From a bacterium (lineage in GTDB: Bacteria; Cyanobacteriota; Vampirovibrionia; Gastranaerophilales; JBAXKC01): DNA of 21,544 nucleotides. Each line of letters starts with the position of its first letter. Position 1 is the first letter of the stretch. A program made the translations under genes and the position numbers. Below, one piece after another: positions 151 to 21,544 of the stretch. The stretch lies in assembly GCA_037137535.1 (NCBI GenBank), contig JBAXKC010000043.1, positions 1 through 21,544 on the forward strand. Reading direction: 5' to 3'. Under the pieces are notes generated by a model that saw only the letters and a list, made by a program, of their open reading frames with translations, did no database searches and was not told the DNA's origin.

Positions 151-2778
151 TTAAAGTTTAAATATCTGCACAATATGAGCTAATTTTTCGGCTATACCAG
201 CTAGTACCTGACTTGTAGCAGCAATTTCCTGACTTGAAGCCGTCTGTTGTTGAACAGCAGCAGCTACTGTTTGCGTATTATCAGAGGCTTGTTTTGATAT
301 ATTTGAAATATGTTCAATAGATTGAACTATTTCTTGTACTCCACTTGTTATGATTCCTGCATCTTTTGCTACATTATTTGCTTTTTGAGATACATCTTTA
401 ACAGCAGTGCTTATTTCCTCAAAGGAATTACCAGCTTCATCTATTAGCATATTGCCGACTTTTACAGCTTCTATTCCTTCTTCCATAGAGATATTAGCTT
501 TAATTACTTCTGTATTTATCTCTTTTATTATAGTTCCAATTTGTTTAGCTGCTGTTGATGTTTGTTGAGCTAAATTTCTTACTTCCGCTGCTATTACTGA
601 AAAGCCTTTGGCATCTTTTCCTGCTCTTGCCGCTTCTATAGAGGCATTAAGAGAAAGTAATCCTGTTTGTTGTGCTATTTTAGAAATCATAACAGTCATG
701 TTATTTATTTCTTTTGATTTTATTCCTAAATCATTAACAATTAATGAAGAAGCAATAACTTTTTCATTAATTTCTTTTATTTGTAATATGGCTTTTTTAA
801 CGTTTTCATTTCCTTCTAGTGATTTTTCTGCAGTTGAATTTGAGAGTTCAGACATATTTAAAATATTATCGTTAACTTTGTTTATTTTTTCAGAAATCTC
901 ACATGCAGTCAGATATGATTTTTCGCTCATAATGGCCTGAGTTTCCGCACCTTCGGCAACATCTTGAATAGACATTGATACTTGCTCAATAGCCCTTGAT
1001 GATTCATCCGTAATTGCAGTAAGTTCTTCTGCGGCTGCGGACATTTGAGAAGCACCATCAAAAATTTGTCCTACTATGTCTTTAAGATTTGTTTGCATTT
1101 TTCCAAATGCTTGGAACAAATCATCAATTTCTTCATCTTCAATATCTTCAATTTGAAGTTTTTCTGTAAGATCCTCATCCGCAATTCTATTTGCTACTTT
1201 TGTCAGTTTTTGGAAAGGATTAGCTATATTTTTAGCAATAAAGAAAGCAATTACCCCTGCTATTGAAACAAAACTCACAATTAAAAGTATCGAATTTAAT
1301 GTATTTTTTTGTTGAGAGCTAGAGGCTTCATTTACTGATTTTGCATTAAGTTCTTCCATTGCTTCACTTGTACTTTGTTCTGCAACAGGTTTTAATTCGT
1401 TAACAGCGGAAGAAGAGGCTTCTTCCGATACTTTGTTCATAAGTATAATTGATGCTGAAACTTGTTTTTTTGCTTCTTCATTCATAACATTTTCTGATTT
1501 TTTAGCAGCATTTATTGCTTTTGATTCCATTGAGGATACGGCCATTGCTAAATGTTTATCTGCTGTTGCTCTGATTATTCCCAGTGTGTTATTAGTTTGA
1601 CTGTTTATTTGATTTTGCATATCCTTTACAACCGAAAAAGCTTCTGCTGTTGGCTCAACAATGATAACATTCCAGCCTAGCGATTTAACAGTAGAATGCA
1701 AACCAAGAACTTCGGTTCCGTCATTTAAAGTAAATACTTTTTTGTCATTATTTCCAGATTTTATGGATTTTACAATTGGATTTGAGGATAAATTTGCTTT
1801 TTTAAGCATAAGTTGTTTATCAGGGTGAAAAATTATTTGTCCGTCATGATCAAGGATAAAAATATAACCTGATTTCCCTATTTTTGTATCAGAAAGAAGA
1901 CTTTCTATACTTGAAAGGTTTAAATCTGCAACAATTGTTCCAACATATTTACCTGGGTAAAGTTGTATAGGAATTCCTAATTTTACATAAGGATATTGTC
2001 TTTTAGATATTTTTACGTCTGATACATATAACTTTCCTCGAGCAGCACTGGCGAACTCAGGAGAAGAAGAGATATCTTTAAGATCGGAAGCATATACCGC
2101 TTCATCAATAGATACTTTTGCAAGCTCTAAACCTGTTTTGTCGGTAATAGCTATATTTGAAAGTTCAGGGAATTTTTTTTGCATAGAAGTAAAAATTGAA
2201 TTAAGAGCAATTGGATCAAGTTTTTTTACATCGGCTAATCCTGCAAATAGCTGTAGAACCTCTTGTGAGTGAACAACCTTTATGTAAATTTCTTTTGCTA
2301 TATTGTCAGCTTTTTCTTCGTTTGTTTGAATAACAGCTCTTCCAAGACTTTCTTTTGAAAGATTTATAAGGTTATTTCCTGTATTTCTGATAGCTGTTTC
2401 TGTAACTTTGCCCACATTGTCATTGGTGTCTTTAATAGTTCTTTTAGAAAGAGCGCTTAATTCATTGCTTGTAGAAAGAAGCGATTGCTTACTTAAATTG
2501 ACAAGACTTTCAGATGTATTGTTTATTGTCTTATTACTTAAATCTGACGAATTTTTCAAGGATTTATGGAGAATTCCTCCAGAAATATTTATCAGACGGT
2601 CGCTTGTATTTTTTATATATGATTTGCTTATTGACCCTAGAAAAGAACTCGTCTTCATTAAACTGTTTTTACTGGAGTCACTTAGTAAAAAGCCCATTAA
2701 TATAAGAGGAACTCCTACTAGAAAAAGCAGCCAAATGACTAATTTTATTATTATTTTTCTTTTCTTTTTTCTTGCCAT
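151..2778 (-). CDS. Methyl-accepting chemotaxis protein, 875 aa: TM1 - helical repeat stalk - dCache_1-like sensor - helical repeat stalk - TM2 - HAMP - MCP signalling domain
   Basis: Signalling-tip motif IAQQTGLLSLNASIEAARAG..GFSVIAAEVRNLA. Cache motifs YVSDV, GTIVADLNL, GKSGYIFILDHDGQIIFHPD and GWNVII. TM segments at about aa 9-32 and 497-515. HAMP-like segment NPFQKLTKVANRIADEDL...EEIDDLFQAFGKM. Confidence 0.95.
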   Translation of the reverse strand: MARKKKRKIIIKLVIWLLFLVGVPLILMGFLLSDSSKNSLMKTSSFLGSISKSYIKNTSDRLINISGGILHKSLKNSSDLSNKTINNTSESLVNLSKQSLLSTSNELSALSKRTIKDTNDNVGKVTETAIRNTGNNLINLSKESLGRAVIQTNEEKADNIAKEIYIKVVHSQEVLQLFAGLADVKKLDPIALNSIFTSMQKKFPELSNIAITDKTGLELAKVSIDEAVYASDLKDISSSPEFASAARGKLYVSDVKISKRQYPYVKLGIPIQLYPGKYVGTIVADLNLSSIESLLSDTKIGKSGYIFILDHDGQIIFHPDKQLMLKKANLSSNPIVKSIKSGNNDKKVFTLNDGTEVLGLHSTVKSLGWNVIIVEPTAEAFSVVKDMQNQINSQTNNTLGIIRATADKHLAMAVSSMESKAINAAKKSENVMNEEAKKQVSASIILMNKVSEEASSSAVNELKPVAEQSTSEAMEELNAKSVNEASSSQQKNTLNSILLIVSFVSIAGVIAFFIAKNIANPFQKLTKVANRIADEDLTEKLQIEDIEDEEIDDLFQAFGKMQTNLKDIVGQIFDGASQMSAAAEELTAITDESSRAIEQVSMSIQDVAEGAETQAIMSEKSYLTACEISEKINKVNDNILNMSELSNSTAEKSLEGNENVKKAILQIKEINEKVIASSLIVNDLGIKSKEINNMTVMISKIAQQTGLLSLNASIEAARAGKDAKGFSVIAAEVRNLAQQTSTAAKQIGTIIKEINTEVIKANISMEEGIEAVKVGNMLIDEAGNSFEEISTAVKDVSQKANNVAKDAGIITSGVQEIVQSIEHISNISKQASDNTQTVAAAVQQQTASSQEIAATSQVLAGIAEKLAHIVQIFKL
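1327..1641 (-). repeat. Seven degenerate 15-aa repeats between the Cache domain and TM2 of the MCP (aa 380-484)
   Basis: AFSVVKDMQNQINSQ / TNNTLGIIRATADKH / LAMAVSSMESKAINA / AKKSENVMNEEAKKQ / VSASIILMNKVSEEA / SSSAVNELKPVAEQS / TSEAMEELNAKSVNE. Position 8 is always M/I/L, position 5 is mostly V/L/I/M and position 12 is mostly A/S. Confidence 0.7.
2359..2673 (-). repeat. Seven 15-aa repeats between TM1 and the Cache domain of the MCP (aa 36-140)
   Basis: SKNSLMKTSSFLGSI / SKSYIKNTSDRLINI / SGGILHKSLKNSSDL / SNKTINNTSESLVNL / SKQSLLSTSNELSAL / SKRTIKDTNDNVGKV / TETAIRNTGNNLINL, followed by SKESL. Confidence 0.8.
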
Positions 2779-3994: not shown

Positions 3995-6769
3995 TTATTT
4001 ATTCTCTGCTCTAAGTAAACAACTGATTTGTTGACTATACTTCTGATAAAAATAGGATAATAACAGCATTATTACTCCCAATCCAATATACGAAATAACT
4101 CTATATAATTGACTAAGGAAAGAAAGATCAATTATGAATACTTTTAATACCGTTATTCCAAGGATTGATAACGCTATATACCATACAGGTTTTATTTTAT
4201 GCAGGATTCCCCAAATCATAAGTCCTATAGAATACATTAGCCATACGCCTGAAATTACAAGTTGTTTTAAATTGTTAAAAAGGTTTAATTTTCCACTATC
4301 AGTGGCAATAGAGCTATTATTTGTTAATAAAAAGATTTCTTTGGCAAACAAATCTTTAACTTCAATTGTTAAAATGAAGAAAATTAAAAGGCTTAAAGTT
4401 ATTTGTATTAATTTAATATACGGATAAATTAAATTATCCTGTGAATTTTGTTTTAGCCATTTTGTTATACAAATAAGTGTAATTATCAGAATTGAAAACA
4501 TAAACATTCTTTCATTGAAGAAAATCGTATAATTCTCAATAGGCACAAAAGAAAATCCATAGAAAATCCCAGCTGATAATGCTAATATTATGCTAAAACT
4601 TCCGCATATAATTAATGGTGTGTTTTTCTTTTTAATTCCTTTTTTAATCAAAGGAATCGAATATAAAGACCAGACTATTGCTAGAAGCATATTTTTACTA
4701 AATAATATACTTTGAGTTATTCCTCCTGTTAAGTTTGTTTTCTTTGTGAAAAAGTCTGAAATTTCACAATTCAACAGGATAAAAATTAATAAACACCAAA
4801 GATAAGTACAAATATTTTTTATGCCTTTAGCCCAAGAATAATTTTGTTCATATTTTTTAATAATATTTGAAGTATACATAAGGCTTAGAGCGGTTAGGCA
4901 AAATGCAACAAAACGCATATTAATTAAAGGTAAAAAGCTTTCAATCGGAGTAAAGGTTAATCCTGTAATTAATAATTGTAAAACCGCAATTGAAATGCCT
5001 GCAAAGCCTGAATATATAAATGATTTTGTTGTTTTATTGAATCCTGCTCTTAATAGCTGAAGCGAATAAGACATCCAAACTATAACTTGTATCATGGATT
5101 TATTAAAGTTAATCAAGTTTGCGGTGTTATTGATTGAATTAAAGGCAAGTTTTGTCATAAAATCATTTACTTCAACGCTAAAGATGATAAATAAAAGTGT
5201 ACACCAGCAATAGTTATAATACTCTTTGAGCAATTTTGTATTTTCTGTTTTATTTAATAATTTTGAACTTATTGCCAGTAAACTTATTAAAATAAGGTAT
5301 GTCATTGTTCTTAGGTTTAATAAAGGAGTATAGTTGTTTAATTCTATAAAACCAAGTGCTTGTTTATTAAAAAGTAACGTTATCATTGAAATAGAAAATA
5401 AATAGGTTGCAGTCTTATATACATAGTTTTTTTGATATTTAAGACCAAGCCATAGTATAGCAAAGGCTTCAATTGACCACATTATTATTTTACTAAATCC
5501 TGTATATTCAATATTAGTAGCGATAACAAGTAATAAAATAGAGGCAATGATGTTTTGTTTCAGATAGTTTTCAGGTTTGTTGAATTTCTTATAAGTGATA
5601 AGTCCCAAGGCAAAATAGATTAAAGATATTATAAAAGTGATAATCGCTATTGAATTATGACTGCAAATTGTATTCATTCCTGCATAAAACATAATTCCGT
5701 TTAATATATTTGAGTAAATTCTTGTATTATTTCCTTTTGAAACTCGGAAAAGGTCTAGCCCTGTGTATCCCATCCATATTGAGAATAAGAAAATAAATGA
5801 AAGCATTGCATTATTAGTTATAGTTGGATTTGTTGTAAAAAAGATGAAATAAGTAGTAAAAATACTTATAAATTCTAATGATTTCCAATTTTCTTTTTTT
5901 ACAAGTAGTGCTATAATCCATCCGTTTAAAAATATAAGATAAGTTAATAACCCCACTATATTTCCTCCGCCCGAATATAGAAGAAAAGGAGTTATAAATC
6001 CGCCTGTCAGTCCTAGTAAGGCAACGGCAACCGAGTCATATTTTAAAGCCTGTTTAAAGGCAAGAATTGTTGATCCGCTCATTAAAACTAATGCAAAACG
6101 ATAATCAATTAAGTGGTAAAAATTAGACGAAGCAAAGGTTGAAAGATAGGAAACCGCTATTCCTGCTCCTGCAAGTCCTTGTGAGAAAGATTTATAATGA
6201 TCTTGTTTAAAGAAATGATTTGCTCCGTAGATAAGTCCTGCCGCAACTAAATAACCTGTTAATATTTGAATGAGAGGGTTGATCCAGTTTTCATCAAAAG
6301 CATATTTTAGAAAAAATCCCATTCCTAAAATTAAAGCTAAAGCTCCGATTTTATTAAACAGGTTCGCCGTTATAAATGTTTCAATCTCTGATTTTTCTCG
6401 TGCTTGCTTATCAGTTTTAGAAAGAATAGGTTCTTCGTTTTCAATTTCTTTTTTTTCTTCATAAAGCTCATTAAAAATAGGCTCATAAGGTTTTTCGGCT
6501 TCTTTTATTATTTCAACTGTTTCTTCCTGAATAATTTCTTCTTTAATAGGTTCTTCCTGATTATCAGAAATATGATTTAGTTTTTTTATTTCAGATTCAA
6601 GCGTAAAAATTCTATATTTTAATTGTCGTATTTCTTCGTTGAACTCTTCTTTAATCTCTTGAATAAGATAAAGAAGAGTTTCTTTATTATTTTTAGGTGA
6701 AGTATTATTTGTTTTCACCAGCCATACAATTCCGTAGATTATTAAAATTAAGAATAATAATGTCATCAT
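3995..6769 (-). CDS. DUF2339-like polytopic membrane protein, 924 aa
   Basis: N-terminal TM, coiled coil and acidic linker, then the family-typical ETFITANLFNKIGALALILGMGFFLKYAF, FSQGLAGAG and LLGLTGGFITPFLL. The C-terminus has LKVFIIDLSFLSQLYRVISYIGLGVIMLLLSYFYQK. It starts 6 nt after the upstream stop, so it is likely co-transcribed. Confidence 0.85.
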   Translation of the reverse strand: MMTLLFLILIIYGIVWLVKTNNTSPKNNKETLLYLIQEIKEEFNEEIRQLKYRIFTLESEIKKLNHISDNQEEPIKEEIIQEETVEIIKEAEKPYEPIFNELYEEKKEIENEEPILSKTDKQAREKSEIETFITANLFNKIGALALILGMGFFLKYAFDENWINPLIQILTGYLVAAGLIYGANHFFKQDHYKSFSQGLAGAGIAVSYLSTFASSNFYHLIDYRFALVLMSGSTILAFKQALKYDSVAVALLGLTGGFITPFLLYSGGGNIVGLLTYLIFLNGWIIALLVKKENWKSLEFISIFTTYFIFFTTNPTITNNAMLSFIFLFSIWMGYTGLDLFRVSKGNNTRIYSNILNGIMFYAGMNTICSHNSIAIITFIISLIYFALGLITYKKFNKPENYLKQNIIASILLLVIATNIEYTGFSKIIMWSIEAFAILWLGLKYQKNYVYKTATYLFSISMITLLFNKQALGFIELNNYTPLLNLRTMTYLILISLLAISSKLLNKTENTKLLKEYYNYCWCTLLFIIFSVEVNDFMTKLAFNSINNTANLINFNKSMIQVIVWMSYSLQLLRAGFNKTTKSFIYSGFAGISIAVLQLLITGLTFTPIESFLPLINMRFVAFCLTALSLMYTSNIIKKYEQNYSWAKGIKNICTYLWCLLIFILLNCEISDFFTKKTNLTGGITQSILFSKNMLLAIVWSLYSIPLIKKGIKKKNTPLIICGSFSIILALSAGIFYGFSFVPIENYTIFFNERMFMFSILIITLICITKWLKQNSQDNLIYPYIKLIQITLSLLIFFILTIEVKDLFAKEIFLLTNNSSIATDSGKLNLFNNLKQLVISGVWLMYSIGLMIWGILHKIKPVWYIALSILGITVLKVFIIDLSFLSQLYRVISYIGLGVIMLLLSYFYQKYSQQISCLLRAENK

Positions 6770-6775
6770 TGTTTT

Positions 6776-9700
6776 TTACGCTCCAACGTTATTCAACCTT
6801 TGATAATACCACTTCTCTACTTCTTTACGCTTAACTTTTCTTGTTGCAGTTTTTGGTAATTCTTCAAGGTTAACCGTAATAACTGTCGGGCATTTATAAG
6901 AAGCAAGTTCAGCTTTTGCCTGTTTATTTACTTCTGAGGTAATAATTTTTTCTAATTCTTTAGGATTGTGCTGATATTGTTTAACTAAGTCATCGGAGGG
7001 AACTATAACGGCACATACTTCTTCTGTTCCGTCTTTTGCTCCGCCCTTAATTTTAACGCTCATAACGCATAGTTCTTTGATTAGTTCATTTTTGGATAAG
7101 GTTGCTTCGACTTCTTCGGGGAATATTTTCTTTCCTCCGCCTAAAACAATCATATTTTTAATTCGACCTGTTATATAAAGGAATCCGTCCTTGTCAAACT
7201 CTCCAATATCGCCTGTATGAAACCAACCTTCTTCATCTATTACTTCTGCGGTCATTTGAGGATTGTTGTAATAGCCTTTCATTAAGTTTGGACCTTTAGT
7301 TAAAATTTCACCTTCTTCTGAAAGTCTTATGATCACACTTGGAAGAGGTTTTCCTACAGAGCCGATGCGATTATCTTCGGGCGTATTTGTAGTTATTGAC
7401 GGGCTTGTTTCTGTCAATCCGTAACCTTGATAAATTGGAATTCCAATTCTTTCAAAGAATTCTCCTACTTCTGTTTCTAGTGGCGCACCGCCGCAGACAA
7501 AGCCTTTTAATTTTCCGCCAAAACCTGCAATAACTTTCTTAAACATAATTCTTCTAATGTGAATAGGCATGTATTTTGCAATTTTATACATAAATTCAAA
7601 GAGGTTTTGAGCTGTTTTATCTGATTTGCGAATTTCTTTTTCTACGCTGTTTTTAAGCATTTTTACAAAAAGCGGAACGACAATCATATATGTTGCCTGT
7701 CTTTCCTTCATAACTTTGCCGATTTCTTTAGGATTTAAGCTTTTGCAGTATGAAACTCTAGCTCCCATATAAAGCATTCCAAGAAAGCCGACATTCAGCT
7801 CTAAAAGGTGATTTAAAGGTAAGATTGAAACAAGAGAATCATTGGAATTGATTTTAAATACTGATTCAAAATCTTTTAATTGGGCGATAATATTTCCGAA
7901 AGTTATCATAACTCCTTTTGGATTACCTGTTGTGCCTGATGTATAGATAATTAAAGCTGTTTCGTCAAGTGTTCTGTCTCTTCCAATATCGCCTTGCGGA
8001 GCTTTTAGTTCATAAACAGATCTAAATTCACAACTTTGCGGTTTTTCTTCTATTACGAAGATATTTTCTATTGAAGGTATATTTTTTTGTAATTCTTTAG
8101 CTGTCTCAATATAATGTGCGGAAACGCATAATATTTTTGGTAAACAATCTGACAAAATAGAAATTAATTCAGCGTTAGTCAGCTTTATATCAAGCGGAAC
8201 GGTTATTGCTCCTGTCTGTATGGATGCAAATAAAGCAATTCCCCACTCTGGTCTTGATTCTGATAAAATAGCAATTTTATCGTTTCTTTCAAGTCCGTTA
8301 GCGATTAAATAATTTGCAAAGTTTTTTGCCTGTCTTGAAAGTTCAATGTAGCTTAATTCTTTCCAGCTGTCTTTATCTTTAAGTGATAAGGCTTTAACAG
8401 GTCCGTGGATGTCGCCTTTAAACTGCATTAGGTCAAGCACGTTTTCATAATCAGTTTTAGCTGCTTTTATTTTTTCTTTTCTTTCAATAGAATCCTTCAT
8501 AAATTGAACTCTGTCTTTGAGTTCATCAACAACGTTATCTTCCAGGTTGTAGATAGGTTGCCCGAATTGAATAGTGATTTTCTTGAATGTAGGAAATAAT
8601 TTATTATAAGCCCAAGCTTCAAAACCGCCGTGAATTACAAACGGAACTATGGGAGTGTTGCTGTTTTTTGCCATATAAGCAACGCCTTTGTTGAATTTGT
8701 TCAGTTTCCCGTCAGTAGTTAATTTCCCTTCGGGAAATATACAAAGGACTTCACCTTTTAATAGTTTTTTAACGGCAACATCAAGGGCTTCAACTCCTTT
8801 TCGAGGTTTAATTGCTATTACGTTAAAATAGTTTATGATTAACCTTATTACGGGAAGATTAAAGGCAACTTCGCCTGTGATAAACCATATCGGTCTTTTA
8901 CAGGCTACTTGAAGTATTAAAGTGTCAATCCAGCCTGTATGATTACCTGCAAGTATCATTTTACCGCTAGTTTTAAGATGTTCTCTTCCTTCAATTTTTA
9001 TTGGAAAGAAAACTCTAAAAATACTGCCAAATGTTGTACGTACTAAAAAGTGACGGAATGGGCTGTCAAAAAGTAACACAATAAGCGCCATTGAAAAACT
9101 TAATGCGGAAACGCTTTTAAATACATTAATCGGGCTTTTAATTGTCAAAACTTCGGATACAATCCACATTGTAGCTAGAAATGCACCTGTTGTAACGGTT
9201 GAGCGGAAACCGAAGATTTTTCCTCTTAATCTGTCTGGGGTTACTTTTTGGAGAATTGTATCTAATGTAATTAAAATAATAGAATTTGCAATTCCTATTA
9301 AAACCAGCCAGCCCCAAGCCATTGAATAAGTTTTTACAAGCTGAGCCGTTGCTGTTGTAAGGAAAATAGCAAGAAATGAGCCTGCGAGCAAATAAGAAAT
9401 TCTGATATATTTGCTTAAATACAAGGTGATTAATGTTCCCAATATCATTCCCACTCCAAGCATTCCTTTGAGTTTGCTTACTCCCGAAATTCCGATTTTA
9501 AAATAGTCGGTAGCTAGAGCGTTCATTGAATTGAAAAATGATGCTGTAATTAAGGACAAAGCGACTGATAGAAGAATTAATCTTAAAGTTTTTTTATGTT
9601 TTTTTAAATAAGCTAAAGTAAATCCAAAATCTTTAAATACGGTGTTATAAATACATTTGCCTACGCAGATTGTTGTATGTTTGCCAAGCTTCAAAAGTGA

Positions 9701-10282
9701 TGCGAATAAGGCTGAAATAATATAAATAAAACCGTTTAGGAATAAGCCGTTAGCTAAGCCTATTTTGTTGATATAAATTCCTGAGATTATCGCTCCTAAA
9801 AGGATTGCGATAGTTGCTGTTCCAGAATTTAAAGCATTGGCTAATTGTAAATGTTCTGATTTTACAATGTTTGGCAGGGTACTTTGTTTTGCAGGATAAT
9901 AAAAAGCAGAACCGATTCCCATTAAAAATGAAAACCCGTATATTGAAAAATTGGTATCTGCGATTATAATGGTATTTTTGAATAAAAAGGCAGGAATAAT
10001 AAAGACTAGAAGGGCCCTATAGGCATTACTGCACACCATAATCCATTTGCGGGAAAATCTGTCGGCAATACCCCCCGCTAAAGGACTTAGTAAGAGAGAA
10101 GGCAACATGAAGAAAAACAGAATTTTTGCCATTTCAGAACCGGCTTTTTGTGAAAAGCTTATCACCCAACTCATTAAAGCAATTTGAATAATGGAATCTC
10201 CTAAATAAGAGCAAATTTGCCCCAGCCATAATTTAAGAAATTCTTTGTTTTTAAATAAATTCGTAAATTTAATCTGCTTCAC
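6776..10282 (-). CDS. Three-domain fusion, 1168 aa: MFS transporter + PlsC-type lysophospholipid acyltransferase + AMP-forming long-chain acyl-CoA/ACP synthetase (LplT/Aas-like lipid salvage)
   Basis: GTG start with AGGAG at 10291-10295. MFS motif A is GGIADRFSRK. Acyltransferase motifs are NHTGWID (HX4D) and IFPEG. Adenylation motifs are YTSGTTGNPKG, GYGLTE, GWFHTGD, ITGRIK and LPKTATRKVKR. Confidence 0.92.
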   Translation of the reverse strand: MKQIKFTNLFKNKEFLKLWLGQICSYLGDSIIQIALMSWVISFSQKAGSEMAKILFFFMLPSLLLSPLAGGIADRFSRKWIMVCSNAYRALLVFIIPAFLFKNTIIIADTNFSIYGFSFLMGIGSAFYYPAKQSTLPNIVKSEHLQLANALNSGTATIAILLGAIISGIYINKIGLANGLFLNGFIYIISALFASLLKLGKHTTICVGKCIYNTVFKDFGFTLAYLKKHKKTLRLILLSVALSLITASFFNSMNALATDYFKIGISGVSKLKGMLGVGMILGTLITLYLSKYIRISYLLAGSFLAIFLTTATAQLVKTYSMAWGWLVLIGIANSIILITLDTILQKVTPDRLRGKIFGFRSTVTTGAFLATMWIVSEVLTIKSPINVFKSVSALSFSMALIVLLFDSPFRHFLVRTTFGSIFRVFFPIKIEGREHLKTSGKMILAGNHTGWIDTLILQVACKRPIWFITGEVAFNLPVIRLIINYFNVIAIKPRKGVEALDVAVKKLLKGEVLCIFPEGKLTTDGKLNKFNKGVAYMAKNSNTPIVPFVIHGGFEAWAYNKLFPTFKKITIQFGQPIYNLEDNVVDELKDRVQFMKDSIERKEKIKAAKTDYENVLDLMQFKGDIHGPVKALSLKDKDSWKELSYIELSRQAKNFANYLIANGLERNDKIAILSESRPEWGIALFASIQTGAITVPLDIKLTNAELISILSDCLPKILCVSAHYIETAKELQKNIPSIENIFVIEEKPQSCEFRSVYELKAPQGDIGRDRTLDETALIIYTSGTTGNPKGVMITFGNIIAQLKDFESVFKINSNDSLVSILPLNHLLELNVGFLGMLYMGARVSYCKSLNPKEIGKVMKERQATYMIVVPLFVKMLKNSVEKEIRKSDKTAQNLFEFMYKIAKYMPIHIRRIMFKKVIAGFGGKLKGFVCGGAPLETEVGEFFERIGIPIYQGYGLTETSPSITTNTPEDNRIGSVGKPLPSVIIRLSEEGEILTKGPNLMKGYYNNPQMTAEVIDEEGWFHTGDIGEFDKDGFLYITGRIKNMIVLGGGKKIFPEEVEATLSKNELIKELCVMSVKIKGGAKDGTEEVCAVIVPSDDLVKQYQHNPKELEKIITSEVNKQAKAELASYKCPTVITVNLEELPKTATRKVKRKEVEKWYYQRLNNVGA

Positions 10283-14468: not shown

Positions 14469-17400
14469 ATGCCAGTTAATTTGTATGAAAACGAGAATCC
14501 TTCAGTTTATAAATATACTTATGAATATGGAAGATTTAATGAACTTTTAAGTGAGAAAGAATACAGCTTAGATGGATCTACTTTAATCTCAGAATCTAAA
14601 TACACATATAATTATAATGCAGATAATACTTTGGTTTTAGTTGAAGCACACAAAGATATTTATAATGATGATATTAAAACAGCAGTAATCAAATATGAAT
14701 ATAATGAAAGTGGAGATGCAGTTACTAAGGAATCTTATTTTAATTGTGATCCTAAATTAGGGTTATTACCTACTTATATTAAGCATTTGGACGAAAATGG
14801 AAATGTAATTTCTTCAGAATATCTTAGTAATCGCTTTGACGAAAACGGAAATATAATTTCTTCTACAATGTACGATAATTTAGAGCTTTTAGCTAATTCT
14901 GAATTAATGGGAAATGTTAAAGATATAGCAACTGCCGGTTTAGCGGCAGCAGTTTCAGCTGAAGATTTAACTCATACAGCTTTAGAAAATGCTACAACTG
15001 CTAAAAATAATGCTATTGCTACTGCTGCCGCTACACAAACAGCTTTAGAAAATGCTACAACTGCTAAAAGTGAAGCTATTGCTGAAGCAGCTACGACGCA
15101 AACAGCTTTAGAAAATGCTACCTCTGCTCTTGCGACAGCAACTTCAAATGCAACAGCAACTGAAACGGCGAAAATTAATGCTACAACTGCAAGAACTAAT
15201 GCAATTGAAGCGGCAGCAATTACGCAAACCGCTTTGGATAATGCAACAACTGCGAAAACAAATGCTATTGCTGCCGCTTCAGTTACCCAAACCGCTTTAG
15301 ATAATGCTAGCTCTGCTCTTGCAACAGCAATTGCAAATGCAACAGCAACTGAAACTGCGAAAAATAATGCTACAACTGCAAGAACTAATGCAATTGCTGC
15401 TGCTGCAATTACACAAACAGCGTTAGATAATGCTACCTCTGCTCTTACATCTGCAACTTCAAATGCAACAACAACACAAACAGCATTGGATAGTGCCACA
15501 ACTGATAAAAACAATGCTATTGCTGCTGCTGCAGTTACACAAACAGCTTTAGAAAATGCTGCCACTGTTAAAAATAACGCTATAGCTGCCGCTGCAGTTA
15601 CGCAAATCACTTTAGAAAATGCTGCCTCTGCTCTTGCAACAGCAATTGCGAATGCAACAGCAACTGAAACTGCGAAAACTAATGCTAATACTGCAAGAGA
15701 TAATGCTATTGCTGATGCTGCAATTACGCAAACAGCTTTAGATAATGCTACATCTGCTCTTGCAACAGCAACGTCAAATGCAACAGCAACTGAAACTGCG
15801 AAAATTAATGCTACCACTGCGAAAATTAATGCTATTTCTGCTGCTGCAATTACGCAAACAGCTTTGGATAATGCAACAACCGATAAAACTAATGCTATTA
15901 CTGCCGCTGCAGTAACCCAAACAGCTTTAGATAATGCTACCTCTGCTCTTGCAACAGCAACTTCAAATGCGACAGCAACTGAAACTGCGAAAACTAATGC
16001 AACAACTGCAAGAACTAATGCTATCGCTGCTGCCGCAGTTACGCAAACCGCTTTAGATAATGCTGTCTCTGCTCTTGCAACAGCAACGTCAGATGCAACA
16101 GCAACTGAAACTGCGAAAATTAATGCTACTACTGCAAGAACTAACGCAATTGCTGCCGCCGCAGTTACTCAAACCGCTTTGGATAATGCTATAACTGCTA
16201 AAAACAATGCAATAGCTGATGCCGCAGTTACTCAAACAGCTTTAGATAATGCTACATCTGCTTTAGCTTCAGCTGTTACAAATGCCGGAACTACTCAAAC
16301 TGCATTAGATAATGCTACTACTGCTAAAAGCAACGCTATTACAGCTGCAGCTACTGCCGCTTTGGCTCTTACGAACGATGCTACTAATATATCGCTTATT
16401 GCTGCTAAACAAGCGGCAGATGCACTTGTAGTAACAAAAACAAATGAATTAGATGCCCTCAGAACACCGGAATACCTTGCGGCTCTTGCCTTAAAAGAAG
16501 AAGCTGTTGCAGCTGCAGTAATAACAAATAATGCATTAGTTGCAGCAACATCAGCTCATGATGCTGCTGTCGCGGCAGCCGCAGCTACTCAAACAGCCTT
16601 AAATAATGCAACAACTACATGGGGTAATGCCGTAACAGCAGCAGCACTTACAGAAACAGCTAAAATTAACGCTGCAACTGCATTAAGTGATGCCGTAACA
16701 GCAGCAGGAATAACAGAAACAGCTAAAACTAATGCCACAACTGCATTAAGTGATGCCGTAACAGCGGCAGGAATAACAGAAACAATTAAAACTAATGCCA
16801 CAACTGCTCGTGACACAGCTGTTACTGCTGCGGCATTAACTGAAACAGCGAAAACTAATGCTGTAAATGTCTGGAATGATGCTGTAGCAGCTGCAGTAGC
16901 CACTCAAACAGCAAAAGATAATGCTGTTACTGCCTTATCAACTGCAAACACAAATGCTGCAACTGCATTAACAGCAATGAATAATGCCACAACTTTATTA
17001 AATAATGCAATTGCTGCTGCCAATAACACTGAAGCTTCAAAAGTTGCAGCAACAAATGCAAAAGTAACTGCAGTTGCAAATGCTGCAACTGCATTAGCAG
17101 CAAAAAATGCTGCAACTACTGCAAAAGCTGATGCAGTTGCAGCAGCTGTAATCACTCAAAATGCTGTAAATACTGCAACTACTGCAAAATCAGATGCAGA
17201 AGCAGCCGCCGCATTAACTCAAGCAGATGTAGACGTTGCTTCGTTAGCCTGGAACAATGCTGTAACTGGTGCAGCAACGGCCGCAAGTAATCTTGCTGAT
17301 GATCCTTCAAATGTAACTCTTCAAACGGCAAAGGATAATGCTGATGCTTTAGTTGTCTCTACATTAGCGACTTTAACAAATGCAACAACCATTGATGATG

Positions 17401-20400
17401 CTTATGATGCTATAGTTGTAACAAAAACAGCTGAATTAGCCGCTGCCGTAGCGGCAGATAATACAGCTGATGCACTGGTTATAACAAGAAACTCTCAATT
17501 AGCAACTGCAAATACAGCATTAACAACAGCAAATGCCTTAGTAACAAGTAAAACTAATGCTTTGAATATGGCTATATCAATAGATAATGTAACTGATGCT
17601 TCAGTTATAACAAGAGCTAATGAATTAAATACCGCTACAACTGCATATAATACAGCAACTGCTTTAGTTACAACAAAAACAAATGAATTAACTACTGCCA
17701 CATCAGCAGATGATGCTGCAGATGCTCTAGTCGCTACTGACTTAACTGCCAAAAATGCTGCTATATCAGCAGATAATGCAGCTGATGCTTTAGTTACAAC
17801 AAGAAATAATGAATTAAGCGCAGCTACAACAGCAGATACAACAGCTGATGATTTAGTCGCAACAAGAACAAGTGAGTTAAATACTGCTACAACAGCAGAT
17901 ACAACAGCTGATAACTTAGTAACCACAAGAACTACAGAATTAGCGACAGCCACAACAAATGATCAAAATGCTGACGCTTTAGTTGTTTCAACATTAGCTA
18001 CAAAAGTAAGTGCTACCAATGCCGATAATACAGCTGATGGTATAGAATCATCAACAAATGCAACATTAATAAGCGCTACTGCTGCAGATAATGCAGCTGA
18101 TACTCTGGTAACAACAAGAACCAACGCAGTAAACGCTACAATCTCACCGGAAGCTATAGCCGCAGGTGAAGCGCTAAATTCAGCAATCAATGCCGCTGCA
18201 ATAACTCAAACTGCAAAGAATACAGCAACAACAGCATTAGCAACGGCAATTTCAAATGCGACAGCTACTGAAGCTGCTAAAATTAATGCTACAACTGCTC
18301 GTGATGCAGCTGTTACAGCTGCGGCATTAACTGAAACAGCAAAAAATGATGCGGATACAGAATGGAATAATGCAGTTTCAGCAGCTGTAATAACTCAAAC
18401 GGCAAAAGACAATGCTACAACTGATTTAGCAACCGCAACTAATGCCGCAGCCGCTACTCAATCTATAAAAGATACGGCAGTAACTGCACTTGCAAATGCT
18501 GAATCTGCAGCTGCTATAACTCAAACAGCTAAAGATAATGCTACATCAGCACTTACATCAGCAACAAATAATGCTGCTATAACTCAAACAGCAAGAGATA
18601 ATGCCATAGCTGCTTATAATAGTGCTGTATCAGCAGCAGCTACAACCCAAACTGCCAAAGATAACGCTACAACTGCTTATAATAATGCTGTTTCATCAGC
18701 AGCTATTACTCAAACAGCTAAAGATGCAGCCAGTTCAGAGCTGGCAACCGCAGTATCAGCTGCTATTGTAACTCAAACCGCTAAAGATGCGGCAGTTGCT
18801 GCATTGGCAAGTGCAAATACTAGCGCAGCAGCAACTGAAACTGCTAAAATAGCTGCAAATACAGCATTAACAACAGCAAATACTAATGCCGCAGCAACGG
18901 AAACCGCAAAAAACAATGCAATAACGGCTTATAATAATGCTGTCACTGCTGCTGCAGTTACAGAAACAAATAAAACAAATGCAAGTTCAGATTTAGATGC
19001 TGCAGTTGCGGCAGCGGCTACTACTCAAGCAACTAAGGACGCAGCCAGTACTGCTCTTAGTTCTGCAGTTACAGCAGCAGCTGCTACTCAAGCTACAAAA
19101 AATACTGCAACTTCTGAATTAACCGCCGCTACAAATGCGGCTCTTGAAACTCAAGATGCTAAAGATGCTGCAACATCAGCATGGAATGATGCAGTCTCCT
19201 TTGCCGCATTTACACAAACCTCAGTAGATGATGCAACAATAGCATTAAATAGTGCAAATACTGCAGCGTCAGATGCAGCAGCTGCATTAGTAGGTCATGA
19301 ATCTGATGCGGGGCTTATTGCCGCAAAAGCAGCAGCTGATGATCTTGTTATTTCTGCAACAGCTGATCTTACAAATGCTACAACAATAGATACTTTTATG
19401 GATTCATTGGTTTCTACAACAGCATCAGATTTAACAGCGGCAACAAATGCTGATGATGCGGCGGATGCTTTAGTTTTAACAAAAACTACTGCATTAACTA
19501 ATGCCACAAATGCTGATGATACTGCGCAGGCTTTAGTTGCAACAAGAACAACCGCTTTAACTAATGCTACAAATGCAGATAATACTGCAGATGCTTTGGT
19601 GGTAACAAGAACAACCGCTTTAACCAATGCTACAAATGCAGATAATACTGCTAATGCCTTGGTTACCTCAACATTAGCCGCTAAAAATGCTGCAATAACC
19701 GCAGATAATACTGCTGATGCTTTAGTTGTTACAAGAACAAATGAATTAACTGCGGCAACAACAGCAGATACAACAGCTGATAACTTAGTCACAACAAGAA
19801 CTACTGAATTAGCTACTGCAACAACAGCAGATAATACAGCCGATGCTTTAGTGGTAACTAAAACCACTGCTTTAAATAATGCAACTAATTCTAACAACGT
19901 ATTAGAGGGTTTAGTTTCAGCAAGAGCTGCTGACTTAGCAACTGCGACAACTAATGATAATAATGCGGATGCGTTAGTTGCCTCTAGGTTAGCCACAAAA
20001 AATACGGCAATATCAACAGACGATATTGCAGATGCATTAGTTACAACAAGAACCTCTGAATTGACAACTGCGACAAATAATGATAATACAGCAGATGCTT
20101 TGGTTACAACAAGAACTAATGAATTGGCAACGGCCACAACTAACGATAATATTGCAGATGCGTTAGTTACAACAAGAACAAATGAATTAGCTACTGCCAC
20201 AACTGCGGATAATACAGCAGATGCTCTAGTTGCAACTAAATTAGGACTATTAAATGCTGCTATTAGTGCTGATGATACAGCAGATGCCTTGGTTGTAACT
20301 CGAAATAATCAACTGACTACAGCTACAAATACTGATAATACAGCAGATGCGTTGGTTGTAACTCGAAATAATCAACTGACAGATGCTACAAGTGCCGATG

Positions 20401-21544
20401 ATGTAGCAGATGCCTTGGTTGTAACAAGAACAAACGAATTTACTGCATTGACAACAGGAGGAGGACTTGCAAGCGCTGAAACCGCAATAGCAACTGCCGA
20501 AACGGCATTAGTAAATGCCCAAACAGCTGCAACTACAGCTGCAGACGCACTTGCAAATAATGCTGATGTAAATGCATTGATTGCCGCAAAAGCTACAGCA
20601 GATACATTAGTTGTAACAACAACAACAGCATTTAATAATGCTCAAACAGCAGATACAACAGCTGATAATTTAGTCACAACAAGAACAAATGAATTAGCTA
20701 CTGCAACAACAGCAGATAATACAGCTGATGCTTTAGTTTCATCAACAACTGCTACATTTGATGCAGCAGTAACAGCCGATACAACAGCAGATAACTTAGT
20801 CACCACAAGAACAAATGAATTAGCTACTGCAACAGCAGACGATACAACCGCAGATAACTTAGTCACCACAAGAACAAGTGAATTAGCTACTGCAACAACA
20901 GCAGATAATATAGCAGATGCTTTAGTTACAACAAGAACAAATGAATTAGCTACTGCGACAACCGCAGATAATATAGCAGATGCTTTAGTCACAACAAGAA
21001 CAAATGAATTAGCAACTGCGACAACAGCCGATAATACAGCTGATGCTTTAGTTTCATCAACAACGGCTACCTTTGATGCAGCAGTAACAGCAGATACAGC
21101 AGCAGATGACTTAGTCGCAACAAGAACAAGTGAATTAAATGCTGCGACAACAGCAGATACAACAGCAGATAATTTAGTCACAACAAGAACAAATGAATTA
21201 GCTACTGCGACAACAGCGGATACAACAGCAGATAATTTAGTCACAACAAGAACAAATGAATTAGCTGCGGCAACAACAGCCGATACAACAGCTGATAATT
21301 TAGTTACAACAAAAACTAATGAATTAGCCGCAGCTACAACCGCAGATACAGCCGCAGATAATTTAGTTTCATCAACAACTGCTACATTTGATGCTGCATT
21401 AACCGCAGATACAAGCGCAGATGATCTAGTTTCATCAACAACTGCTACATTTGATGCTGCATTAACCGCAGATACAACCGCAGATGATCTAGTAACAACA
21501 AGAACGACTGAACTAGCTACGGCTACAACTAATGATCAAAATGC
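14469..21544 (+). CDS. Giant Ala/Thr-rich 21-aa-repeat coiled-coil protein, at least 2358 aa, 3' end outside the window (absent from the ORF track)
   Basis: AGGAG at 14457-14461 and ATG at 14469. Manual translation stays open in one frame from MPVNLYENENPSVYKYTYEY to ...ATATTNDQNA at the window end. It was probably omitted from the track because it has no stop codon. No signal peptide. Confidence 0.95.
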   Translation, partial: MPVNLYENENPSVYKYTYEYGRFNELLSEKEYSLDGSTLISESKYTYNYNADNTLVLVEAHKDIYNDDIKTAVIKYEYNESGDAVTKESYFNCDPKLGLLPTYIKHLDENGNVISSEYLSNRFDENGNIISSTMYDNLELLANSELMGNVKDIATAGLAAAVSAEDLTHTALENATTAKNNAIATAAATQTALENATTAKSEAIAEAATTQTALENATSALATATSNATATETAKINATTARTNAIEAAAITQTALDNATTAKTNAIAAASVTQTALDNASSALATAIANATATETAKNNATTARTNAIAAAAITQTALDNATSALTSATSNATTTQTALDSATTDKNNAIAAAAVTQTALENAATVKNNAIAAAAVTQITLENAASALATAIANATATETAKTNANTARDNAIADAAITQTALDNATSALATATSNATATETAKINATTAKINAISAAAITQTALDNATTDKTNAITAAAVTQTALDNATSALATATSNATATETAKTNATTARTNAIAAAAVTQTALDNAVSALATATSDATATETAKINATTARTNAIAAAAVTQTALDNAITAKNNAIADAAVTQTALDNATSALASAVTNAGTTQTALDNATTAKSNAITAAATAALALTNDATNISLIAAKQAADALVVTKTNELDALRTPEYLAALALKEEAVAAAVITNNALVAATSAHDAAVAAAAATQTALNNATTTWGNAVTAAALTETAKINAATALSDAVTAAGITETAKTNATTALSDAVTAAGITETIKTNATTARDTAVTAAALTETAKTNAVNVWNDAVAAAVATQTAKDNAVTALSTANTNAATALTAMNNATTLLNNAIAAANNTEASKVAATNAKVTAVANAATALAAKNAATTAKADAVAAAVITQNAVNTATTAKSDAEAAAALTQADVDVASLAWNNAVTGAATAASNLADDPSNVTLQTAKDNADALVVSTLATLTNATTIDDAYDAIVVTKTAELAAAVAADNTADALVITRNSQLATANTALTTANALVTSKTNALNMAISIDNVTDASVITRANELNTATTAYNTATALVTTKTNELTTATSADDAADALVATDLTAKNAAISADNAADALVTTRNNELSAATTADTTADDLVATRTSELNTATTADTTADNLVTTRTTELATATTNDQNADALVVSTLATKVSATNADNTADGIESSTNATLISATAADNAADTLVTTRTNAVNATISPEAIAAGEALNSAINAAAITQTAKNTATTALATAISNATATEAAKINATTARDAAVTAAALTETAKNDADTEWNNAVSAAVITQTAKDNATTDLATATNAAAATQSIKDTAVTALANAESAAAITQTAKDNATSALTSATNNAAITQTARDNAIAAYNSAVSAAATTQTAKDNATTAYNNAVSSAAITQTAKDAASSELATAVSAAIVTQTAKDAAVAALASANTSAAATETAKIAANTALTTANTNAAATETAKNNAITAYNNAVTAAAVTETNKTNASSDLDAAVAAAATTQATKDAASTALSSAVTAAAATQATKNTATSELTAATNAALETQDAKDAATSAWNDAVSFAAFTQTSVDDATIALNSANTAASDAAAALVGHESDAGLIAAKAAADDLVISATADLTNATTIDTFMDSLVSTTASDLTAATNADDAADALVLTKTTALTNATNADDTAQALVATRTTALTNATNADNTADALVVTRTTALTNATNADNTANALVTSTLAAKNAAITADNTADALVVTRTNELTAATTADTTADNLVTTRTTELATATTADNTADALVVTKTTALNNATNSNNVLEGLVSARAADLATATTNDNNADALVASRLATKNTAISTDDIADALVTTRTSELTTATNNDNTADALVTTRTNELATATTNDNIADALVTTRTNELATATTADNTADALVATKLGLLNAAISADDTADALVVTRNNQLTTATNTDNTADALVVTRNNQLTDATSADDVADALVVTRTNEFTALTTGGGLASAETAIATAETALVNAQTAATTAADALANNADVNALIAAKATADTLVVTTTTAFNNAQTADTTADNLVTTRTNELATATTADNTADALVSSTTATFDAAVTADTTADNLVTTRTNELATATADDTTADNLVTTRTSELATATTADNIADALVTTRTNELATATTADNIADALVTTRTNELATATTADNTADALVSSTTATFDAAVTADTAADDLVATRTSELNAATTADTTADNLVTTRTNELATATTADTTADNLVTTRTNELAAATTADTTADNLVTTKTNELAAATTADTAADNLVSSTTATFDAALTADTSADDLVSSTTATFDAALTADTTADDLVTTRTTELATATTNDQN
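14970..16355 (+). repeat. Block A1: 22 x 63-bp type-A repeats (T[QE]TA[LK]xNATTA[KRL]xxAIAAAAx)
   Basis: Exact 63-bp period. Three subtypes: a = TQTAL..K, b = TQTAL..SALATA, c = TETAK..R. Order is a a b c a b c b a a b c b c a b c b c a b a. Confidence 0.92.
16467..18146 (+). repeat. Internal module 1: about 13 type-A repeats (16467-17279), turn (17280-17339), about 13 type-B repeats ADxLVxTRTNELxxATTADxx (17340-18146)
   Basis: Manual translation and unit counting. Bounded by TPE (Pro 16467) and SPE (Pro 18147). Confidence 0.9.
18147..20456 (+). repeat. Internal module 2: about 18 type-A repeats (18147-19274), turn (19275-19334), about 18 type-B repeats (19335-20456)
   Basis: Manual translation and unit counting. 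Ends at a GGG linker (20457-20465). Confidence 0.9.
20598..21544 (+). repeat. Block B4: at least 15 x 63-bp type-B repeats, continuing beyond the window
   Basis: ADNLVTTRTNELATATTADTT-type units, with Phe variants (mostly VSSTTATFDAA) at units 1, 3, 8, 13 and 14. Confidence 0.92.

Follow-up and report, generated by a model that had tools for sequence, protein, structure and literature searches.

The segment between P1227 and G1997 of a giant protein encoded by an uncultured freshwater bacterium very probably forms a single intramolecular antiparallel two-helix coiled-coil hairpin. In the arrangement that we propose, an A arm would ascend to a tight turn, GHES(D), from which a B arm would return, and each arm, of about 385 residues, would measure an estimated 57 nm or so if fully helical. 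The arms would be built from two complementary kinds of 21-residue unit, A and B, with irregularly placed special pairs that would keep a repeat prone to slipping in register and identify the partner arms. The corresponding open frame is interrupted by the end of the contig, at the end of the window (the whole stretch of 21,544 nucleotides analyzed here). The features of this segment, designated hairpin 2, are listed below, X units being those whose position 12 is aromatic.

14469..21542, forward strand: open frame of the giant protein, 2358 aa, interrupted by the contig end
18147..19292, forward strand: hairpin 2, A arm (aa 1227-1608), 18 A units, predicted helical
18363 (W1299), 18615 (Y1383), 18678 (Y1404), 18930 (Y1488) and 19182 (W1572), forward strand: X units of the A arm
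19293..19307, forward strand: turn GHESD (aa 1609-1613), mirror axis at S1612 (nt 19302)
19305..20456, forward strand: hairpin 2, B arm (aa 1613-1996), 18 B units, aa 1613-1747 helical in the short AlphaFold2 model
19422 (A1652), 19674 (L1736), 19926 (A1820), 19989 (L1841) and 20241 (L1925), forward strand: partner units of the B arm
20457..20465, forward strand: GGG1997-1999, helix breaker closing hairpin 2, with G1997 mirroring P1227

From P1227 to T1996, the segment consists of 18 A units, the GHESD turn and 18 B units. Leu or Ala occupies unit position 9 in only five of the B units, and these are the mirror partners of the five aromatic A units. The coordinates and residues that the initial annotation had given for this pattern were all verified. 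The pairs L1736/Y1488, L1841/Y1383 and L1925/W1299 each yield a nucleotide sum of 38604, that is, a residue sum of 3224 and an axis at S1612, while W1572, in the second unit from the turn, lies opposite A1652 (MDSLV unit) and Y1404, in the tenth, opposite A1820 (LEGLV unit), A1652 and A1820 being the sole Ala residues at B position 9. Across the 18 unit pairs the residues are LWLLLYLLLYYLLLWRLL at A position 12 and TATTTLTTTALTTTLNNT at B position 9, with the special pairs irregularly spaced at k = 2, 6, 10, 11 and 15; F1991, at k = 18, lies opposite a default unit. The remainder of the repeat region is organized into further arrays and turn motifs, including a second and shorter hairpin.

14970..16358, forward strand: A-I array (aa 168-630), 22 A units, proposed ascending stem strand with B-IV as partner
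16359..16466, forward strand: turn motif T1 (axis T639) and a single B unit, stopping before P667
16467..18149, forward strand: hairpin 1, P667 to P1227, 13+13 units, axis S947 (nt 17307)
20466..20597, forward strand: short A-like segment and turn motif T4 (axis D2033, nt 20565)
20598..21542, forward strand: B-IV array, 15 complete B units up to the contig end

The proposal of a reusable A/B pairing code (aromatic with Leu or Ala, Arg with Asn, Leu with Thr by default) holds in its central part. The units behave as antiparallel partners, and the aromatic rule recurs in hairpin 1, where Trp at k = 1, 7 and 11 lies opposite Leu (3/3), and in the stem described below. The Arg-Asn component is weak: both TTARD units of the hairpins do face TRNN (k = 16 in hairpin 2, k = 8 in hairpin 1), as had been noted, but Asn at B9 is also found opposite Lys, His and Leu, and in the stem three Arg units, one of them ...TARD..., lie opposite Thr. 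Exceptions to the pairing comprise L-N at k = 17 of hairpin 2, where its second TRNN lies opposite Leu, the F1991 unit noted above, and L-A and K-N in hairpin 1. Two complementary whole-unit types, X (TA[YWF][ND]xAV) and Z (L..KN.AI or its Ala-9 form), describe the code better. Co-variation with A position 12 extends over the entire Z motif (B positions 7-16), and the code is therefore not a set of single-residue contacts. In structural terms, an X unit with its aromatic at position 12 (TA[YW]NxAV) would lie opposite a Z unit, in which Leu is shifted from position 12 to position 9 and replaced by Lys at 12 (L..KN.AI), or opposite the Ala-9 variant.

Each unit spans 21 residues, or three heptads, and carries invariant stripes at T1/A8/A15 and A19 in A units and at A1/A15 and V5/L12 in B units. 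Conservation is complete at A8, A15 and A19 of the A units (Ala in 53/53) and nearly so at V5 (45/46) and L4 (43/46) of the B units. We infer that the small stripe of the A units would lie opposite the large V5/L12 and the A1/A15 positions of the B units, a stripe-to-stripe placement that assumes a register one residue off the axis of the initial annotation. Ala is also frequent beside the proposed core, at A4, A11 and A18 of the A units and at A18 of the B units. In the Kyte-Doolittle power spectrum 3.5 is not the leading period, the peaks lying at 4.2 in the A arm and at 3.0 and 10.5 in the B arm.

The observed register is unlikely to arise by chance. At a fixed register, 5/5 matches have a probability of 1/8568, or 3.4e-4 if a one-unit shift either way is allowed, and of all the possible unit shifts, circular or linear, parallel or antiparallel, antiparallel shift 0 alone yields 5/5. 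Parallel registers reach a maximum of 4/5, because a spacing of about four units is common to both arms. The register-shuffling check that had been suggested bears out the pairing: total mutual information, computed over all 441 column pairs with none picked, ranks the true register first of 36 in hairpin 2 and first of 26 in hairpin 1, and for the pooled hairpins it amounts to 155.9, compared with 138.5 ± 3.7 for shuffled unit order (0/2000 shuffles match). A12-B9 is the top column pair of the 441 after z-scoring (z 6.5), and the highest raw single-pair value lies within the permutation maximum (p 0.29). With unit classes defined post hoc from the same data, cognate arms in register show 0-1 mismatched unit types, and every full-overlap alternative shows more.

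The ends of the arms follow the same symmetry. Beyond residue 150 the protein contains only three prolines (667, 946 and 1227), and both 667+1227 = 2x947 and 1227+1997 = 2x1612 are exact. Nucleotide 18147 starts the P1227 codon and nucleotide 20456 closes T1996, the next codon, G1997, being the exact mirror of P1227. The two arms, P1227-V1608 and D1613-T1996, are of equal length, are separated by a short turn and are bounded by symmetric helix breakers. The earlier statement that length was tuned separately for each arm is correct in the sense that hairpin 1 comprises 13+13 and hairpin 2 18+18 units, with residue-equal arms within each, and an alignment of the turns on L(I/Q)(A/T)AK indeed brings the axis Ser of GHESD into line with the Ser of the hairpin 1 turn, DDPSN. 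Tandem Repeats Finder reported periods of 63 and 126 nt. A DNA inverted repeat was ruled out, since the on-axis reverse-complement identity is 18.8%, compared with an average of 25% for the full set of offsets, and no long DNA arm pair was found on the hairpin 2 axis.

Structure prediction, which had been proposed as a check, supports the helix-turn-helix topology in part of the segment. The best AlphaFold2 model of aa 1477-1748 (pLDDT 85.3, pTM 0.58) consists of two long helices, at construct residues 2-132 and 137-271, with a break at residues 133-136, which correspond to G1609-S1612 and define a turn of four residues; the other four of the five models were weak (mean pLDDT 68.6, 53.1, 50.4 and 45.9). 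The single-sequence run on the full-length segment (aa 1227-1996) was poor, with a mean pLDDT of 43 and a B arm drawn as strands at pLDDT 27-50, and this model was discarded. The best structural matches to the short model are long antiparallel two-helix hairpins: the Smc arm 5xg2 (Z 13.6), RipA 6ewy (Z 13.5, rmsd 2.0 over 200 residues) and the chemoreceptor 2ch7 (272 aligned residues, the full length of the model; Z 12.1, TM 0.51), with Foldseek E-values all above 0.001 and Z scores of about 13 being common for long helices. The matches also include a further Smc arm fragment, 5nnv, and Maxi (4ke2), an Ala/Thr-rich helical hairpin with 26% identity to the modeled segment (E 0.14). The repeat period of Maxi is 11 residues.

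Beyond the two hairpins, the first A array (A-I) and the last B array (B-IV) obey the same pairing in 15/15 units with the roles swapped, the Phe units of B-IV (SSTTATFDAAV) falling at k = 1, 3, 8, 13 and 14. This putative stem pairing is a new observation absent from the initial annotation. Turn motifs T1 and T4 are likewise symmetric (639+2033 = 620+2052 = 2672). A complex prediction of A-I units 2-9 (aa 441-608) with B-IV units 2-9 (aa 2065-2232) returned a score of 0.02 without controls, which speaks neither for nor against binding.

The frame begins with a beta-rich (YD-like) domain that is colinear with a paralogue on contig C18 of the same genome.

14469..14882, forward strand: N-terminal beta-rich (YD-like) domain, aa 1-138, colinear with the C18 paralogue

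This domain shares 39% identity with aa 1-134 of the paralogue (E 2e-16). A Pfam search of aa 1-170 returned no families, YD-repeat models included, the YD-like appearance being a judgment by eye, and no Pfam family was matched over all 2358 residues. In the paralogue the domain is uninterrupted; here, the entire repeat region appears to be inserted at one point of the domain, which is also a new observation. The gene probably continues on contig C46, an assignment based on shared B units and on colinearity with the C18 paralogue. C46 opens with B units, which are followed by 22 stretches of RTX nonapeptide repeats (C46 open frame against HemolysinCabind, E 1.8e-123), that is, the tandem GGxGxD calcium-binding repeats near the C-terminus that characterize RTX type 1 proteins. 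The predicted total for B-IV is 22-23 units, and therefore 3-4 units (189-252 nt) would be absent between C46 and the contig of the window (C43). No suffix/prefix overlap joins the two contigs, and no bridging piece was present in the Logan contigs of four runs; short-contig joints within the repeats of these runs were distrusted as a link, and parts of the stretch uncovered in runs X2, X3 and X6 were left uninterpreted. Two HlyD-type secretion genes score above the family cut-off in the genome, on contigs C1 and C5, and none was found among the six C46 neighbors and three window neighbors scanned.

Together, the stem pairing and the one-point insertion point to a three-armed nested coiled coil in an RTX-type protein. 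Whether the whole repeat region, of at least 2300 residues, constitutes a natural single-chain 'coiled-coil origami', with three cognate antiparallel arm pairs, one junction and a marker bar code, we consider an evenly balanced proposition. The arm pairs would be the stem A-I/B-IV (~70 nm), hairpin 1 (~41 nm) and hairpin 2 (~57 nm), meeting at a junction capped by two mini-hairpins, and the entire structure would interrupt, at a single point, the beta-rich domain of what would be a giant RTX surface protein. The aromatic X markers and the Z markers, with their Lys and shifted Leu, would fix both register and partner choice, with X carried by the A strand of each hairpin and by the B strand of the stem.

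Several alternative explanations bear on the interpretation of P1227-G1997 as a hairpin. It is conceivable, with a modest share of our confidence, that the hairpins are real and pack side by side, hairpin to hairpin or as dimers, in four-helix bundles whose contacts are marked by the special units. The flanking Ala residues would create wide small-residue faces, comparable to those reported for the antiparallel honeybee-silk tetramer (PMC12284834), and chemoreceptor hairpins and Maxi are among the fold matches; the hairpins are nonetheless of unequal length (13 and 18 units), and therefore cannot pair with each other over their full length. We deem it unlikely that the same A:B pairing occurs between chains, in antiparallel dimers, fibers or a lattice. 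An antiparallel homodimer centered on S1612 would equally be expected to give a constant i+j, and the mirror pattern therefore cannot separate pairing in cis from pairing in trans; the genome also encodes many RTX proteins that could build surface layers. The axes at 947, 1612 and 1336 (stem), however, are nested in one chain, where a single dimer axis is insufficient, every axis sits in a turn motif rich in G, P, S, D or N, the arm ends (Pro or GGG) are exactly opposed and the AlphaFold2 monomer folds as a hairpin.

It is highly improbable that the mirror pattern arose by accident as the tandem repeats evolved, from a higher-order periodicity in arms that make no contact. The spacing of variants by about four units in both arms, the 63- and 126-nt periods and the parallel shifts reaching 4/5 are all compatible with such an origin, but three arm pairs repeat the pattern in the register dictated by the turns, the helix breakers are exactly symmetric with no DNA palindrome, and tandem duplication yields direct rather than mirrored order. 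Equally hard to credit is a B arm formed by a beta-rich, solenoid-like repeat, as might be suggested by the strands with 21-residue spacing in the full-length AlphaFold2 run and by a B consensus with 33% Thr. In that run the B arm reaches only the low pLDDT given above, whereas the confident short model shows one helix over aa 1613-1747; moreover, unit-for-unit mirroring needs an equal rise per unit in both arms, and the nearest sequence look-alike, P0002 (E 2e-12), contains ADAEVLRLTGEL-type repeats that by eye resemble a heptad coiled coil. The intramolecular two-helix hairpin remains the reading that we favor for P1227-G1997.

The giant protein is apparently a surface-type protein unique to its source bacterium. 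No homologues were detected among 40 relatives of the same order (0/40), and neither a word-indexed search of proteins of near length, with the hairpin region and the N-terminal domain as queries, nor scans of genome and metagenome contigs returned a usable homologue. A phmmer search of 1.84 billion representatives gave 13 matches at E <= 0.001, the four retrieved being low-complexity or other repeat proteins, and the best score in the ESM Atlas was 0.76, with nothing usable. The accessible literature on RTX antiparallel coiled-coil hairpins and 21-residue antiparallel repeats describes nothing like this protein.

Comparison with known systems highlights both shared and distinctive features. 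The arms of SMC, MukB and Rad50 are intramolecular antiparallel coiled coils formed by one folded-back chain (PMC2141774), and as in those proteins, long helices of equal length, distant from each other along the chain, would here pair antiparallel over tens of nanometers. Unlike them, the segment lacks an ATPase head, hinge or hook domain (no Pfam families) and has a turn of only four residues, and its arms consist of two tandem families of 21-residue units with markers, several hairpins being nested in one chain. The cytoplasmic hairpin of chemoreceptors (2ch7) is likewise long and helical with a tight U-turn; this resemblance is topological only, since the MCP signaling domain was unmatched in Pfam, and the segment lacks conserved signaling heptad repeats and resides in a presumably secreted RTX protein. 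The small residues of the proposed core are shared with Ala-rich antiparallel coiled coils, including the Alacoil concept, Maxi and honeybee silk, where small residues are reported in the core of antiparallel helices (PMC12284834). In contrast to bee silk, with its four separate chains, and to Maxi, the protein repeats every 21 residues and has both of its complementary kinds of unit in a single chain.

The modules of coiled-coil protein origami (CCPO), which is man-made and yields polyhedra, are short, about four heptads. The fold of such a single chain is set by long-range pairing of cognate orthogonal coiled-coil segments (PMC7878516, PMC7878764 and PMC10416210). Here too, segments follow a defined order, with three putative cognate arm pairs bearing different marker patterns; unlike CCPO, the protein is natural, its arms span 280-480 residues, the pairing is nested, and orthogonality would stem from the spacing and polarity of marker units. 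Giant RTX adhesins, such as the Marinomonas ice-binding adhesin, use tandem Ig-like beta domains as extenders (PMC4083281). The protein resembles them in being very large and repetitive, with many RTX calcium-binding repeats at its end and HlyD-type proteins in the genome, and differs in that its repeat region is predicted to be helical, self-folding and inserted into the N-terminal domain at one point.

In a long repetitive coiled coil any repeat could pair with any other, which makes slippage a problem. This natural protein appears to solve it by means of aperiodic complementary marker layers, and the same marker pair with its polarity swapped appears to keep the three arm pairs from cross-pairing. 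If this is confirmed, the addressing logic used by protein designers in coiled-coil origami would have a precedent in nature, and a tertiary architecture of ~100 nm would prove readable from sequence alone. Giant RTX surface proteins would also gain a new kind of extender, which in place of a string of Ig-like domains would be a helical, branched structure set within a domain.

The window spans the entire contig C43 of a genome of 2.95 Mb and 31% G+C. The open frame at 14469-21542(+) encodes a giant protein (P0001) of 2358 residues and extends past the contig end. Past a beta-rich N-terminal domain of ~140 residues, Ala makes up 29% and Thr 23% of the protein, which is built of 21-residue units of two kinds, with consensus TQTAKDNATTALxxAVxAAAI (A units) and ADALVTTRTNELATATTADNT (B units); a Pfam scan of the 2358 residues returned no family. 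Freshwater and lake metagenome runs from two studies contain pieces of the window, those from the second study being mostly identical to it. Among metatranscriptome contigs from the sample of the main holder, one of 229 nt matches positions 20366-20594 exactly, which is at most a weak hint of transcription, DNA carry-over being possible. Judged by eye, none of these three neighbours has an evident connection with the giant gene:

151-2778, minus strand: chemoreceptor-like protein (by eye)
3995-6769, minus strand: large multi-pass membrane protein (by eye)
6776-10282, minus strand: fused transporter / acyltransferase / acyl-activating enzyme (by eye)

The initial annotation had proposed that the 18 A and 18 B units of hairpin 2 (P1227-G1997) pair in mirror order about the turn GHESD, and the coordinates and residues it listed were all found in P0001. 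With units numbered from the turn outward (k = 1 to 18), position 12 of the A units reads LWLLLYLLLYYLLLWRLL and position 9 of the mirrored B units reads TATTTLTTTALTTTLNNT. All five aromatic A units (k = 2, 6, 10, 11, 15) oppose the only five B units whose position 9 is Leu or Ala, the lone Arg unit (TTARD) lies opposite Asn (TRNN), and Leu-Thr accounts for 11 of the 18 unit pairs. Since the mirrored pairs all sum to residue 3224 (nt 38604), the axis is indeed placed at S1612, the Ser of GHESD.

The probability of a 5/5 match is 1/8568 at fixed register and 3.4e-4 with a one-unit slip allowed. Because both arms space their variants roughly every 4 units, shift nulls were added; no unit shift, circular or linear and in either orientation, reached 5/5 except antiparallel shift 0, the best parallel registers giving 4/5. 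The register-shuffling check suggested by the initial annotation was performed with no column selection, on mutual information summed across the 441 A-by-B column pairs, and ranked the true register of hairpin 2 first of 36. With hairpins 1 and 2 pooled, total mutual information was 155.9, as compared to 138.5 ± 3.7 for shuffled unit orders, none of 2000 shuffles equalling it. After z-scoring over 46 unit pairs (both hairpins plus 15 stem pairs, described below), A12-B9 is the top of the 441 column pairs (z = 6.5). The raw maximum mutual information by itself is unexceptional (P = 0.29). A DNA palindrome, which would trivially produce mirror order, is excluded: reverse-complement identity is 18.8% on the axis, compared with 25% on average, and the hairpin 2 axis has no long inverted pair in the DNA.

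The same arrangement recurs in hairpin 1 (P667-P1227), where the 13 unit pairs about S947 read WKKKLLWRLLWHK / LTNTATLNTTLNT, with three of three Trp opposite three of three Leu and Arg opposite Asn, and where the true register comes first of 26 in the all-column statistic. When the four turn motifs of the protein are aligned on L(I/Q)(A/T)AK, S947, the Ser of DDPSN, coincides with the position of S1612, as had been claimed. Past residue 150, the only prolines are at 667, 946 and 1227, and the only Gly triplet is at 1997-1999. These helix breakers are symmetric about both axes (667 + 1227 = 1894 = 2 × 947; 1227 + 1997 = 3224 = 2 × 1612), so that the arms of each hairpin are equal to the residue, with 279 and 384 residues between breaker and axis on each side of S947 and S1612, respectively. 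This symmetry is independent of the aromatic and Leu columns.

A third arm pair, not listed in the initial annotation, involves the A array at the start and the B array at the end of the repeat region, neither of which has an adjoining partner:

14970-16358, plus strand: A-I, 22 A units, ending at turn motif T1 (axis T639); no adjoining B partner
20598-21542, plus strand, probably continuing at nt 3-260 of contig C46: B-IV, starting after turn motif T4 (axis D2033); no adjoining A partner

Among the first 15 units of A-I, those of type TQTAL...K occur at k = 1, 3, 8, 13 and 14, and B-IV units of type SSTTATFDAAV occur at k = 1, 3, 8, 13 and 14. Unit types agree in 15 of 15 positions at antiparallel shift 0, the runner-up among 48 shift and orientation combinations reaching 12 of 15, and under a simpler rule of Lys at A12 all five Phe units land on five of the six Lys units. 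All-column mutual information also peaks at this register, narrowly (72.0 versus 70.7; 16 of 1000 shuffles equal or exceed it). The unit-for-unit match implies a long stem, and from this pairing 3-4 B units would be expected to be missing between the window and C46. The turn-motif copies with axes T639 and D2033 (16359-16466 and 20466-20660) each form a one-unit mini-hairpin. As their axes sum to 2672, the stem register value, the junction may form a short four-helix cap, with hairpins 1 and 2 leaving at its base.

C46 opens in frame with B units, followed by a second beta-rich stretch, RTX nonapeptide repeats over ~1600 residues (HemolysinCabind, E = 1.8e-123, 22 stretches) and a stop codon. 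The ends of the two contigs share no overlap. On contig C18 (from nt 49787), a paralogous RTX gene carries this N-terminal domain in one unbroken piece, without A or B units. Residues 1-138 of P0001 (14469-14882) align with residues 1-134 of the C18 protein (39% identity, E = 2e-16), and residues 90-370 of C46 (nt 270-1100) with its residues 139-420 (33% identity, E = 3e-28). This colinearity supports C46 as the probable continuation of the giant gene. From the same two alignments, the repeat region (at least 2300 residues long) is an insertion whose flanking positions are separated by four residues in the paralogue. A folded domain can accommodate an insert only if the insert's ends are neighbours, and antiparallel pairing of A-I with B-IV would draw these ends together. 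Elsewhere in the genome, RTX-repeat open frames are numerous (C2, C20, C5, C8, C68, C62, C33, C17, C36, C1), the longest being 4117 aa, an unusually large set given the genome size of 2.9 Mb. Two genes for HlyD-type adaptors of type 1 secretion score above the family cut-off.

Structure prediction, also suggested initially, gave one confident model, with two helices, for the six turn-proximal units per arm, but no usable model of the full segment. The single-sequence model of all 770 aa of hairpin 2 was unusable (mean pLDDT 43), with a helical A arm and the B arm as strands at pLDDT 27-50. For aa 1477-1748, the best model (pLDDT 85.3, pTM 0.58) has helices at 2-132 and 137-271 with a break at G1609-S1612, the remaining four models having mean pLDDT of 68.6 to 45.9. 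In Foldseek and VIA-align searches, it matches long two-helix antiparallel hairpins over its full length:

Smc arm (5xg2): Z 13.6
RipA coiled coil (6ewy): Z 13.5, rmsd 2.0 over 200 residues
Chemoreceptor (2ch7): fold match
p85 iSH2: fold match
Flounder antifreeze Maxi (4ke2): fold match

All Foldseek E-values exceed 0.001 and Z values near these are common for long helices; the matches inform on topology alone. In the A units, T1, A8 and A15, which share one heptad position, are small and invariant, as is A19, and positions 5 and 12 hold large variable residues; in B units V5 and L12 are invariant and A1 and A15 small. A hydrophobic periodicity of 3.5 is not dominant. If both arms have positions 5, 12 and 19 as 'a' and 1, 8 and 15 as 'd', an antiparallel a-d' core would need A position p opposite B position 20-p, one residue off the originally proposed axis. 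We infer from these columns that such packing would give large-small layers (A8-L12, A15-V5, K/L5-A15), together with A19-A1, T1-D19 and L12-R8, and would place A12 opposite B8, next to B9 and B12. Trp or Tyr, both bulky, could then fit at A12 if B12 Leu were replaced by Lys and Leu gained at B9, or if B9 were reduced to Ala.

In the hairpins, the aromatic marker unit X (TA[YW]NxAV) lies on the A strand and its partner Z (L..KN.AI; unit residues Leu9, Lys12 and Ile16) on the B strand. Polarity is swapped in the stem, where the A strand carries the Lys unit (TTAKNNAI) and the B strand the aromatic one (TATFDAAV). In both settings the aromatic residue and the Lys occupy position 12 of their own strands, so that their indices total the axis sum plus 3. 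By this numbering, Lys would lie three residues N-terminal along the X helix's own direction in both polarities, a constant offset that a two-fold-symmetric antiparallel pair would require. The general code claimed initially held for aromatic-Leu/Ala pairing in hairpins 1 and 2, but Arg-Asn, though seen in both hairpins, is not a general rule, as B9 Asn also faces K, H and L, and stem Arg units, including TARD at k = 11, face Thr. Marker spacing is irregular (2, 6, 10, 11, 15 in hairpin 2; 1, 7, 11 in hairpin 1; 1, 3, 8, 13, 14 in the stem). Cognate arms in register have 0-1 mismatched units under a simple compatibility rule and all full-overlap alternatives have more. Given this spacing and these mismatches, we propose that marker units may lock the register and choose the partner arm; as the unit classes were set after data inspection, the proposal is a hypothesis rather than a test.

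Searches of protein, genome-contig, metagenome-contig and ESM Atlas collections found no relatives of P0001, and the three internal arm pairs are therefore the only replicates. The only look-alike of the B unit by sequence (E = 2e-12, 39% identity) is P0002, a 2249-aa lipoprotein-like protein from a representative library, whose ADAEVLRLTGELADVTSDKND repeats span 14 or 21 residues; unlike P0001, it has a single unit kind and no A arm. Intramolecular antiparallel coiled coils with equal arms are an established fold class, with examples in SMC/MukB (PMC2141774), chemoreceptors and other proteins. Giant RTX proteins are likewise a known class, their described extenders being Ig-like domains (PMC4083281). 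The closest concept is designed coiled-coil protein origami (PMC7878516, PMC7878764, PMC10416210). What is new in P0001 is that the arms are made of two complementary repeat families, that aperiodic complementary marker units are mirrored across three nested arm pairs, and that the entire repeat structure is inserted into a domain.
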